Source: a virus
Taxonomy: Duplodnaviria; Caudoviricetes
Virus record (IMG/VR): IMGVR_UViG_3300037313_001148
Location: 1-64,000 of that record
Strand: one strand, 5' to 3'
DNA length: 64,000 bases
The translations under genes and the position numbers were made by a program. Under the pieces are notes generated by a model that ran no database searches, was not told the origin of the DNA, and was given only the letters and a program-made list of their open reading frames with translations. Shown piece by piece: positions 5,344 through 25,676 of this stretch. The first letter of the stretch is position 1; every line of letters begins with the position of its first letter.

Positions 5344-5555
5344 ATGCATGCACTCATTGAACATGCCGAACTACTGAACAAACGTTCACAACGTCCTAGA
5401 ATCGCTTATACGGCCCGCCACGCTATCGCCGGGCGGGAAGGTAGGATCTATCTACCACACTCCAGGAGATGCCACTACAAGCCAAAGAGAGCCGATTTTC
5501 GCCCGGCCCGGCCGGCAGCCCCAAGCCGGGCCAGGCGAAGTGCATCCATGCACTC
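5344..5555. repeat. intergenic module A, similar to 8919..9129
   Basis: atgcatgcactcattg; tcctagaatcgcttatacggcccg (22/24 identical to module B); ends in gtgcat-cc-atgcac. Confidence 0.65.
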
Positions 5556-6030
5556 AATCGTATATTACGCCAACGACTCGACCGCTAATCCCATTGGGAT
5601 CACGGAAGATCCGGTATCGGTGTCCAGCGCTCAATCCTGTATTAATGTTCCGAAAACTGTCCACATGTTCAACTGCACGTTGTGCCATTTCCAGGGACAC
5701 AATCTTGAAAGTTGTTGACCATGTTTTCCCATGATCTCCCGAGAATTGCAGCACATCCATTGCGATTGGGGAGAAAATGCTATTCAAGTATCTTTCCCGC
5801 CGCGTATCGGCGTCATGCCGTTCCATCATCTCGCAAAATTCCACGGCCATTTCCGCGCCCGACTCCAACGCCAGTTGCGCGGCAAATCGGGAGATCGCAT
5901 AGACGTTGTGAATAATGCCGAAATGAAACCATTTGACGATCTCACGCCGTTTGCTCGGGTCGGAAATCCAAGATTCGAGCATGATCGCCAGGTTGTCCAT
6001 CTTCAGTTGCGAGCTAATTGAAGTTGCCAT
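5554..6030 (-). CDS. hypothetical protein downstream of a solitary CRISPR repeat
   Basis: 158-aa ORF, ggag RBS; repeat ends 27 nt before the ATG. Confidence 0.6.
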   Translation of the reverse strand: MATSISSQLKMDNLAIMLESWISDPSKRREIVKWFHFGIIHNVYAISRFAAQLALESGAEMAVEFCEMMERHDADTRRERYLNSIFSPIAMDVLQFSGDHGKTWSTTFKIVSLEMAQRAVEHVDSFRNINTGLSAGHRYRIFRDPNGISGRVVGVIYD

Positions 6031-6057
6031 TGTGATTTGCTCCGTAGGTTGTGCGCA

Positions 6058-6088
6058 GTTTCAATCCACGTTCCGCGTGAGAGGCAAC
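6058..6088 (-). CRISPR. solitary degenerate type I-C CRISPR repeat
   Basis: minus strand GTTGCCTCTCACGCGGAACGTGGATTGAAAC (31 nt), similar to the 15384 repeat; no array. Confidence 0.75.
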
Positions 6089-6123
6089 GAAAAGAAGGCC
6101 GGCAAGCCCAATGCTTGCCGGCC
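6089..6123 (-). terminator. intrinsic terminator after the helicase
   Basis: perfect 11-bp stem ggccggcaagc/gcttgccggcc followed by TTCTTTT on the minus strand. Confidence 0.75.
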
Positions 6124-6158
6124 AGTCACATCATCGCTTGCCGGCCGGTTACATCATC
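6113..6158. repeat. 23-bp tandem duplication
   Basis: gcttgccggccagtcacatcatc / gcttgccggccggttacatcatc. Confidence 0.8.
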
Positions 6159-7842
6159 GTTGGGTCAATTGCTCTTCAGTCGTCCCGTTTCGCTTAGGCT
6201 TGGGTTCGACCCAGTAAAGTTCAGACGTTGCGCGGGTGATCGCCACGTAGATCAGGTTGCTCTCTTGCTTCCGTGCCCATGATTTCTTGGCCATCGGGTG
6301 CGGCAGCAACTCGGGATGAAGGATCCAAACCCGCTCCGACTCCAACCCCTTGACACGGTGGATTGTCGAGAGCACGACTCCGGTCGTCTTGTCTGAAAAG
6401 ATCGACAAAATCTTATTCTTGACGTCGTTGATATTTTCGCATCCTTCGGCCAGGACTTTGAGAGTATCGATCCGGTCGGCCAAACGCTGAGACTTGGCTT
6501 CTTGACCGGGCTTGGCCAGCTTGGCGATTTCGCGATTTCCCCAAGCGTCGATGCGCTCCCAAACGTCGCCGTTCTTTTGTTCCCGGCCGATCTTGTCGAG
6601 AAGAGAGCACAAATTCTTGCCGATGTCGCTTCCCCGGATCGTTGCTTTAACGCCGTTGCGGATCAGCGCCATACAATGCTCGGCCAGGGGAGCAGTCGTG
6701 CGACAGATCACCATATCCCCATCTTTGACGTTCTTCATGAAATCGTCTTCCTTGACGTTTTCCACGGTTCCGGGCTTTGCGGTCGGGGACGCTTGGATAT
6801 GGGGAACGATCTCCTGGGCCGCTTCGATGACCTTGGACGGGCAGCGCCAGCAAATCGAGAGAGGGAGTTCGACGGCCGAGAAGTCTCGCACCACGCTATC
6901 GATGGCTTCCGGATCGGCACCCCTAAATCCGTAGATAGCTTGGTTCCTGTCGCCGACGAACACCGCGCGCCCACCGTTTGCCGTCAGCCGCCGGATCATC
7001 TCGACTTGGATCGGGTTCAAGTCTTGACTCTCATCGATAAACACGTACTGATAGTACGTGGGGAACGCCATGTTCTTTGCGATCGGCAAGAGCAACTGAT
7101 CGTTGAAATCGATCATGGTTTCACAATTGAAACCGTCCTCGTATGTGCGAAGAAGCACGTCGAAAAACTTGTCTGTGCTAACTTCTTTGGGATCCGGGAT
7201 GTCGATGTCGTATCGATCGCAAAGTTCCATCACGTCAGCGCGGGTCGGCAGACCACGGATCGCGCCGTAGCCGAACCCCTTGAACAGCGCCACAAGCCGG
7301 CGGATCGGCGGGAGCATCAACGAAAACTCAATCTCATCCTTGCGATTGAGCATGTCATAACCCACGACGCCCTTGGCCACGAAATCGGTCTTGGAGTCGT
7401 TGAGGGTGGGCTTGACCGTCGCATTTTTGAAAACGATCCCCGCGCCGAGGGAGTTGAGGGTCTTCGCGGTGCAGTTCGGCAGAGAGATCCGCGCCGTCAG
7501 TTCTTCGGCGATCACTTTGTTGAATGCGAGCAAAAGGATGTTCGGCCGCTTGCCACCGTAGGTCAGGGCCGCGCAGGCGTCAATCAGTGTGGATGTCTTC
7601 CCCGACCCCGCCACGGCGTTGACGACCGCGTGGCCGCGTCCTTCGAGAAGCCATTGATAGATGTTCACTTGAAAAGACGTTGGGGCGCGGCCGGTCTTCT
7701 TCGTGAGCCGGTCAATCGTGTCAAGTACCAGCGTCGAGTGTTCCGTGGCCGTCTTGCGCTTGCGGTTTTTGGCGGGAGTGATCGCGACGGGGACCGGGCC
7801 AAAGTCGATGGAAGCGTCGGCGGTCTTGCGCTTGCGTGCCAT
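6154..7842 (-). CDS. UvrD/Rep-family SF1A helicase
   Basis: AVAGSGKT, FIDESQD, GDRNQAIYGFRGA, STIHRVKGLE, YVAITRA; start MARKRK at 7842. Confidence 0.93.
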   Translation of the reverse strand: MARKRKTADASIDFGPVPVAITPAKNRKRKTATEHSTLVLDTIDRLTKKTGRAPTSFQVNIYQWLLEGRGHAVVNAVAGSGKTSTLIDACAALTYGGKRPNILLLAFNKVIAEELTARISLPNCTAKTLNSLGAGIVFKNATVKPTLNDSKTDFVAKGVVGYDMLNRKDEIEFSLMLPPIRRLVALFKGFGYGAIRGLPTRADVMELCDRYDIDIPDPKEVSTDKFFDVLLRTYEDGFNCETMIDFNDQLLLPIAKNMAFPTYYQYVFIDESQDLNPIQVEMIRRLTANGGRAVFVGDRNQAIYGFRGADPEAIDSVVRDFSAVELPLSICWRCPSKVIEAAQEIVPHIQASPTAKPGTVENVKEDDFMKNVKDGDMVICRTTAPLAEHCMALIRNGVKATIRGSDIGKNLCSLLDKIGREQKNGDVWERIDAWGNREIAKLAKPGQEAKSQRLADRIDTLKVLAEGCENINDVKNKILSIFSDKTTGVVLSTIHRVKGLESERVWILHPELLPHPMAKKSWARKQESNLIYVAITRATSELYWVEPKPKRNGTTEEQLTQR

Positions 7843-7894
7843 AATCGAAACTCCAGTGAAAGCCGTGAGAGGCGAAAACCGGCGATAGCCGGAA

Positions 7895-7937
7895 GTCCCG
7901 TCCGGGGAATCGAACCCCAGCAACGCCAGTACGGGAC
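7895..7937 (-). repeat. tRNA-like T-loop minihelix element 1 (leader of the helicase gene)
   Basis: gtcccgt-10 nt-ctgggg TTCGATT ccccgg-acgggac. Confidence 0.85.
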
Positions 7938-15315: not shown

Positions 15316-15383
15316 CTTGCTCTAGAAATTCTTTGAACAGTCAAGTAGAATCAACCTGTCCCGAGTGGAGTGTAATTACTGAT

Positions 15384-15415
15384 GTCGCCTCCCACGCGGG
15401 GGCGTGGATTGAAAC
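15384..15415 (+). CRISPR. solitary type I-C CRISPR repeat
   Basis: GTCGCCTCCCACGCGGGGGCGTGGATTGAAAC, 32 nt with 7-bp stem and ATTGAAAC end; no second repeat nearby. Confidence 0.88.
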
Positions 15416-15438: not shown

Positions 15439-15798
15439 ATGCCAAACACCACAGGCGGCGCCGCCGTCAGGGAGGCTGTTGGAGCGGGTCTAGCTCACCG
15501 TCTGACCAGTTTCCGCAGCGAACAGGAAGCGCGAGGCTCCAAGCGGCGTGGCAAGCACGGTTACACCGCCGGCGCGACCGAAATCGGTGGCAAGCATATG
15601 ACCGGCCGTCATGAAGCGGCTGCCCGCAAGGCGGTCAAGGGAACGAAGGTTGACAGGCACGGCAATATCAACCTGCGCGGCAAGTCGTCCATGTTCAGCG
15701 AGAAGCTGCATGGCCCGAAGGCTGTCGCCCGAGTTCACAAAAACCGAGTTGCCGCGTCCAGGCGTGTCGCTCGCAAGGGTAAGAAGAAGGCTGGCTAA
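15439..15798 (+). CDS. highly basic 119-aa protein (possible nucleic-acid-binding protein)
   Basis: aagaaaggaga RBS, K/R/H-rich, biased codon use. Confidence 0.75.
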   Translation: MPNTTGGAAVREAVGAGLAHRLTSFRSEQEARGSKRRGKHGYTAGATEIGGKHMTGRHEAAARKAVKGTKVDRHGNINLRGKSSMFSEKLHGPKAVARVHKNRVAASRRVARKGKKKAG

Positions 15799-24946: not shown

Positions 24947-25243
24947 CTTCAGCATAGAAACATATCATGGGAAGAAATGATCGTCTGCCGCTTTCTAGAA
25001 TTTCTCCGACGCCTCCACCCCCGCCGCCGAAGCCGCCAACCCATTATTCTTATAGCGGATCGGTATCAAGAGATAACAATAAGTTGCAAGACGTATCCCG
25101 AGAAGAAATGCCGTCTCGGGGACCGCTCTCTTGGCTTTGGTGGCTCTAGATACTTTCTTGAAGGCCATAGCCTTATGAACCTCATCGAACCTGCCATCTT
25201 CAAGGTTGTGCCGTAGCAACCTACGTGTCATAAAGGGAAACCT

Positions 25244-25334
25244 GAGCCGCTGGCGCAACTGGCAGACGCCACCGCAAGAGCGGTGTCCCAAAACTGGGAA
25301 GTAAGAGATCCGGGTTCAAATCCCGGTCGGCTCA
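25244..25334 (+). tRNA. atypical tRNA-like gene (Leu-type D arm, no canonical anticodon loop)
   Basis: gagccg/cggctc acceptor, GCGCAACTGGCAGACGC D arm, ccggg-TTCAAAT-cccgg T arm; two 4-nt-loop hairpins between them. Confidence 0.55.
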
Positions 25335-25676
25335 GATTGATTGTTTCCTTGAAAGCCCTGGCCCTCCCTGATACCATGTTGGCCACGCGGCTCGTAGCCG
25401 CTTCCGCCGCCGGGAGGGCAGCCGAAATGATAAACAGAAATGTTGATCTTTTTGTGCCGCTGTAAGTTTTCTCCCGGCGGTTTTTATGCTCATACCTTTT
25501 CCTTCCCGCAAGCCCACCTCCGCCAATCCCTGCGATCGGTGCGGCGATCCTGCCGGCTACATTCCTAGGCACCGCAAGACCCCTGTGCGGATTCGTACCA
25601 ACTGGAAGGAGGAAGGACAGATCAAAGTGGGTCACGTATGCCAAAAATGTTATTCATATATAGAAAGGCATAAGCA

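Follow-up and report, generated by a model that had tools for sequence, protein, structure and literature searches.

A 31-nt element that resembles a type I-C CRISPR repeat stands alone in the genome of an uncultured soil phage, shortly before the start codon of an open reading frame (ORF) for a protein of 158 aa. What is this element, and does its position say anything about the protein encoded behind it? The sequence-only reading of this DNA took the element for a solitary I-C-like repeat in a deliberate repeat-in-leader design, and the protein for an anti-CRISPR or Cas-regulated candidate. Here the window means the whole stretch of 64,000 nt that was analysed; it belongs to a virus record of 90,669 bp.

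Solitary repeat units (SRU) of viruses have been described (Faure et al. 2019). Such units have been shown to act as RNA anti-CRISPRs (Racrs), and RacrIC1 is one that belongs to type I-C (Camara-Wilpert et al. 2023, PMC10651486). In the case of RacrIC1, a solitary I-C repeat can inhibit I-C immunity; it sits 11 nt downstream of acrIC5, and predicted acr genes have an excess of Racr candidates within 1 kb (PMC10651486). Viruses also carry crRNA-like repressors (Cracrs), I-C ones included (bioRxiv 10.1101/2024.10.29.618823). In prokaryotic hosts, I-C solitary units make regulatory RNAs of 48-50 nt that control defence genes (bioRxiv 10.1101/2024.12.27.630466). The search criterion for such crRNA-like units was 7 nt of repeat-derived handle at the 3' end; the I-C ones have a palindrome in the repeat part and a conserved 3' end (bioRxiv 10.1101/2024.12.27.630466).

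The locus is made up of the following features.

6154..7923, minus strand: UvrD-type SF1 helicase gene upstream of R1 (PF00580, 3.8e-28; phrog_1967, 4.9e-96)
6113..6158, minus strand: tandem 23-nt duplication (copies 6158-6136 and 6135-6113, 21/23 identical)
6097..6123, minus strand: intrinsic-terminator-like hairpin of the helicase gene, 11 bp, 9 GC
6058..6088, minus strand: R1, a degenerate solitary type I-C repeat unit of 31 nt
6058..6068, minus strand: 11-nt segment equal in sequence to the I-C crRNA 5' handle, intact in R1
6040..6043, minus strand: GGAG ribosome-binding motif, 9 nt upstream of the P0001 ATG
5554..6030, minus strand: P0001, an orphan ORF of 158 aa with its ATG at 6030
5489..5509, minus strand: terminator-like hairpin that closes the R1-P0001 unit

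When the sequence was re-read, the minus-strand 31-mer at 6088..6058 was the same as that quoted earlier, and its placement right behind the helicase terminator and 27 nt ahead of the ATG of the ORF 5554..6030 was likewise correct. The T-rich tail of the terminator (6096-6089) abuts the start of R1 (6088), and the GGAG motif falls within the 27 nt between R1 and the ATG. R1 is thus intergenic in this IMG/VR virus contig, with the helicase stop (6154) on one side and the P0001 ATG (6030) on the other. The 23-nt duplication spans the stop codon of the helicase gene and also contributes the terminator's 5' arm. As this arm is present in both copies of the duplication, two alternative hairpins with a common 3' arm are possible. 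No relatives of the helicase were found in the viral contigs searched. An Rfam scan of the window returned no family; ARAGORN reports a tRNA-like gene of 93 nt at 25243-25335 on the plus strand, with a two-base anticodon that the program left undetermined.

The 31-mer of R1 has no second match in the window at up to 3 mismatches (0 matches in 100 shuffles). Its 12-mer GTGGATTGAAAC occurs 4 times in the 90,669-bp record vs 0.01 expected. A profile search of the record with nhmmer gave four copies with E <= 2e-7 each, and the next match had E = 0.5. The copies are R1 (6058-6088, minus strand), R2 (15384-15415, plus strand), R3 at 70.5 kb and R4 at 85.8 kb; the latter two lie past the window end, within the 90.7-kb virus record. 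A candidate fifth copy at genome position 67836 was dismissed (nhmmer E = 44). All four copies end with the same 13 nt (CGTGGATTGAAAC). The sequence over R1 is identical, with no variation, in DNA contigs from four soil/rhizosphere runs.

The closest relative of R1 is R2, which has a layout of its own.

15323..15351, plus strand: promoter-like site TAGAAA-17-TAGAAT upstream of R2, for which R1 has no counterpart
15384..15415, plus strand: R2, an intact I-C repeat unit of 32 nt
ATG at 15439, plus strand: P0002, a basic protein of 119 aa that starts 23 nt beyond the end of R2

R1 and R2 align with 27/32 identities, four transitions and one 1-nt deletion, and R1 has the same T-variant stem and loop letters as R2. 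In the favoured reading, R1 and R2 go back to one repeat variant. All five differences fall outside the last 13 nt. This could mean that the handle is still under selection, the probability of such a distribution by chance being P = 0.07, which makes the signal weak. The two units are inverted relative to one another and frame a 9.3-kb block with a radical-SAM gene and the leftward early genes. We note this symmetry, but with repeats so short and so diverged an inversion cannot be argued from it.

R2 agrees in every letter with the CRISPR array repeat of two MAGs, of a Kiritimatiellia bacterium (L005) and a Granulicella sp. (L006), and is the exact repeat of at least 120 metagenome arrays. This supports the I-C-like identity proposed for R1, which has 27/32 identities to a real array repeat and a 13-nt 3' end typical of I-C. 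Of the two repeats that the earlier reading proposed to compare with host I-C repeats, R2 is identical to these array repeats, and R1 is 27/32 identical to R2. Arrays with the repeat of R2 are present in the same soil/rhizosphere runs (X8-X11) as the phage: these runs contain repeat-spacer-repeat contigs with ten different spacers of 32-34 nt, so a matching I-C array co-occurs with the phage. Of the spacers compared with the phage, 111 from the MAG arrays and 1,850 distinct ones from metagenome arrays that use the repeat of R2, none matches. An array repeat like R1 was absent from 401 sampled genomes of the phylum of the Kiritimatiellia MAG. A host locus like R1 plus its leader was absent from 401 sampled genomes of the phylum of the Granulicella MAG, a sample that takes in two unpublished genomes (G026 and G051) on which no conclusion is based. 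The arrays of the two MAGs, which belong to different phyla, have two variants of the repeat in common, one with T and one with C at position 7, arranged in blocks; this suggests a horizontally shared I-C locus.

R1 is not part of an array. Its nearest copy is 9.3 kb away on the opposite strand and no second repeat occurs within 150 nt; as a single copy it falls short of even a mini-array, which takes at least two repeats and a spacer of about 33-36 nt. A search of the 90.7-kb phage record for a Cas5d gene, the cas family that was looked for, gave no match. Since R2 is a real array repeat and the phage has no Cas5d, the four copies are virus-borne type I-C solitary repeat units.

The processing of I-C repeats depends on a hairpin. 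Cas5c acts on a substrate with a 7-bp stem, a pentaloop and an 11-nt 3' overhang, and cuts at the stem's 3' base; recognition centres on UGG just past the cut, plus the handle, and altering the base of the stem or the overhang blocks processing (PMC8524198). R2, R3 and R4 fold into a canonical stem of 7-8 bp with an 11-nt single-stranded tail (-11 to -13 kcal/mol), i.e., into the stem-loop that is characteristic of an SRU. Their stem letters differ, yet all of them pair, which argues that pairing has been maintained.

R1 has lost this fold. Two G-to-A changes and the 1-nt deletion break its stem, and the minimum-energy fold is a shifted helix of 4-6 bp (-4.3 kcal/mol, z +0.37) in which the cut site is buried; the stem in the canonical register would have +2.6 kcal/mol. 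The weakened stem that had been noted from the sequence is thus confirmed. The 3' handle had been called retained, and so it is: the last 13 nt are those of all four copies, and the UGG trinucleotide is identical to that at the cut site of the canonical repeat. The Cas5c cut would, by analogy, fall between 6069 and 6068. Two base pairs remain at the stem base, as U-G and G-C. In the canonical register, three of the four substitutions relative to R2 retain pairing; by our own count, random transitions in a stem of this kind would do so about as often. Compared with the canonical I-C array repeat (7-bp stem, pentaloop, overhangs of 2 nt and 11 nt; PMC8524198), R1 has the same 11-nt handle and UGG, and it is 27/32 identical to a repeat that occurs in real arrays; unlike the canonical repeat, it is solitary, lacks spacer-repeat periodicity and has a disrupted stem.

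R1 also differs from the other copies in its upstream region. A promoter-like (sigma-70-like) site lies upstream of each of R2, R3 and R4; that of R3 is TTGACT-17-GATATT. A scan of both strands of positions 5400-6500 for sigma-70-type sites, the only type that it covered, found none for R1. In place of the promoter within about 250 bp upstream that is expected of an SRU, R1 has a terminator directly upstream. In sum, R1 has the sequence, the solitary state and the intergenic location of an SRU, without its structure and its promoter.

On balance we favour the reading that R1 is a degenerate, hairpin-less copy of a Racr-type set of RNA decoys of this phage, weak or inactive and in decay. The solitary type I-C units of the phage would mimic the host repeat as RNA decoys. 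R1 is in sense orientation, with the terminator of the helicase gene before it and the ribosome-binding site of P0001 behind it; its transcription would thus depend entirely on read-through into the leader of P0001. Because it keeps UGG and the 11-nt handle that are recognised by Cas5c/Cascade subunits, some Cas binding is possible; without the stem that Cas5c cuts at its 3' base, R1 is unlikely to be cut and is most likely a member of the set with weak activity or none. The surviving pairs at the stem base, together with the three substitutions that retain pairing, mean that protein-assisted folding and cutting may still occur, which qualifies the view that R1 is decaying.

R1 resembles the Racrs, and RacrIC1 in particular, in being a single I-C repeat-like unit between genes of a phage that lacks Cas5d, and presumably also in being co-transcribed with a neighbouring gene. 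As in a Racr setting, the same phage has further intact units behind promoters. Unlike RacrIC1, R1 has neither the repeat hairpin nor a promoter-like site, and it lies upstream of an ORF rather than downstream of a gene such as acrIC5. The phage itself differs from the Racr cases in having four dispersed units with three different stems. The sequences of R1-R4 are absent from the text supplements of the Racr paper (PMC10651486).

The position of two repeats just ahead of a ribosome-binding site was the basis for regarding the arrangement as deliberate. Two of the four phage units end 23-27 nt ahead of a start codon (chance P about 0.02-0.05). We scanned viral contigs for the handle followed by AAACAA and obtained 32 contigs. 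In most of them a solitary hairpin repeat, whose stem varies, is followed by an A/C-rich leader of the (AAAC)n type, a ribosome-binding site and an ATG 18-45 nt downstream of the repeat, which is the layout of R2. The units that have (AAAC)n or a similar A/C-rich stretch directly behind them are from unrelated viral contigs, namely L012, L014, L016-L021, L027, L028, L030, L031, L035-L040 and L045. We found no description of such a leader behind solitary I-C-like repeats in the literature consulted. A second sample, taken without selection on the downstream sequence, consists of 36 distinct solitary hairpin units. The layout was scored as a ribosome-binding site and a start codon 8-45 nt downstream, followed by an ORF of at least 40 aa. 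It is present in 8/36 units (22%) vs 9.3% at random positions (P 0.016) and 6.7% at intergenic-like positions (P 0.002). The downstream stretch begins with AAAC in 4/36 of these unselected units (P about 1e-5). The repeat-in-leader layout is thus real and moderately enriched, yet it is found in a minority of units.

The 3' 22 nt of R1 have no real relatives in the viral contigs. Two matches to its handle plus downstream bases were dismissed, as their upstream part is not repeat-like. Its leader folds no more stably than shuffled sequences (z -0.08). The idea of a deliberate repeat-in-leader design thus holds in so far as the layout recurs above the controls of 7-9%; R1, with neither the hairpin required by Cas5c nor any promoter-like site, appears to be a copy in decay rather than a second device placed by design.

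The main rival to the decayed-decoy reading assigns a function to this layout. Cas5c/Cascade subunits would bind the intact handle in the leader of P0001 (and of P0002), and Cas7 would then spread over about 34 nt, covering the ribosome-binding site and the AUG. Translation or stability of the downstream message would follow the I-C status of the host, and the mRNA would soak up Cascade subunits. The spacing of two of the four units, the enrichment of the layout among viral I-C solitary units and the unstructured (AAAC)n leader behind many of them all speak for it. So does the fact that Cas5c remains on the 5' handle, at the end of Cascade opposite to that of Cas6 in other type I systems (PMC8524198). 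Against it, R1 is without the stem needed for making the 5' end of the handle, its leader has no special structure, and in compact phage genomes any intergenic element comes to lie near a start codon. The genes behind such units elsewhere are, moreover, of mixed functions. For R1 we regard this reading as unlikely.

A broader version of the same idea, to which we give a small chance, is that leader-embedded I-C repeats are a distinct use of solitary repeats, with the 5' end of a phage mRNA as a Cascade assembly site. As Cas5c, the processing enzyme of I-C, remains attached to the 5' handle downstream, a repeat before an abundant phage mRNA would create such a site. The unstructured (AAAC)n leader would serve as a landing pad for Cas7, whole Cascade sets would be sponged, and downstream translation would be tied to the Cas status of the host. 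R1 would then be a handle-only variant that is bound without being cut.

The functions of the genes behind leader-type repeats could be assigned in several contigs.

L017:3831-4457, minus strand: lambda-like tail tube protein
L067:2963-4558, minus strand: Gp23-like (capsid-like) protein, just under the Pfam cut-off
L016:414-911, plus strand: SLT transglycosylase (lysin)
L035:508-1032, minus strand: RuvC-type resolvase
L090: tail-chaperone, a weak match

Several further genes in this position have no assignable function. In L016, identical I-C repeats at 357-389 and 954-986 bracket the whole SLT-domain gene (414-911), an arrangement that resembles a mini-array with a gene as its 'spacer'. Since the genes behind leader-type repeats are of such mixed kinds, the position says little about the protein, and the layout is no marker of anti-CRISPRs. 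The distance from R1 to the start codon is one at which such units commonly stand in phage leaders, and it is not informative on the function of P0001.

This bears on the proposal that P0001 is an anti-CRISPR protein and that R1 marks an acr-racr operon, as in acrIC5-racrIC1. The proposal is compatible with the other readings, and the enrichment of Racr candidates within 1 kb of predicted acr genes (PMC10651486) is in its favour, as is the fact that P0001 is small, an orphan and flanked by terminators on both sides. P0001 has a pI of 6.6, and none of the other five frames reaches the codon score of its own. It has no match in Pfam, PHROG or PDB. Among 1.84 billion representatives, only P0001 itself and two marginal partial matches to much longer proteins were retrieved; the viral contigs searched contain no relatives, and a search of the ESM Atlas gave nothing usable. 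The AlphaFold model (pLDDT 49.6) is too poor for a fold search. With no homologue, family or usable fold, the anti-CRISPR or Cas-regulated role suggested earlier gains nothing from the protein, and the argument from position fails where the same layout precedes tail tube, capsid-like, lysin and resolvase genes, i.e., structural and DNA-metabolism genes. In acrIC5-racrIC1, besides, the repeat is downstream of the acr gene, not upstream (PMC10651486). We regard an anti-CRISPR function of P0001 as unsupported and quite unlikely.

The weakest reading is that R1 and the next ~30 nt form a guide of the Cracr or crlRNA type that steers host Cascade onto the promoter of a cas or other defence gene and represses it. 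The repeat part of R1 keeps the handle, as do Cracr, CreR, CreA and the host I-C units, and the retention of a repeat-derived handle in crRNA-like units, the 48-50-nt RNAs of host I-C units (both bioRxiv 10.1101/2024.12.27.630466) and the viral I-C Cracrs (bioRxiv 10.1101/2024.10.29.618823) are points in its favour. A single repeat-like part can suffice in I-C, and R3 of the same phage follows the TTC PAM logic of Cracrs: the 22 nt after R3 have a 21/22 match inside the promoter of R3 itself, next to a TTC PAM (genome 70515-70596; L003:1453-1534). For the sequences that follow R1, R2 and R4, no partial match turned up in the phage. The guide part of a Cracr is expected to show PAM-flanked partial complementarity, with at least 9 PAM-proximal bases, to the promoter of a cas, toxin or defence gene. 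For the sequences after R1-R4, no PAM-flanked target was found near the cas loci and arrays of the two MAGs whose repeat is identical to R2, nor in 361 kb of metagenome array flanks. The guide reading appears very unlikely for R1. Unlike that of a Cracr, its downstream stretch has no target in the phage and the loci compared, and it consists of the leader and first part of a protein gene; the would-be guide thus runs over the ribosome-binding site and start codon of P0001. Its repeat part, unlike that of the published I-C crlRNA units, has no palindrome, though its 3' end is conserved.

With R1 read as a decayed member of the decoy set, the locus is mostly ordinary: phage RNA decoys are a known class, and R1 is one more copy of this kind, an impaired one. 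With four I-C units scattered over its genome, three different stems among them and one unit in visible decay, this single phage offers a snapshot of the birth and death of such counter-defence elements. The succession of repeat, A/C-rich leader and start codon before many kinds of genes warns against calling anti-CRISPRs by position. The same layout suggests a testable, I-C-specific mode of decoy in which the mRNA itself bears the handle. The leads that go beyond R1 are the family of (AAAC)n leaders and the I-C units placed before structural genes.
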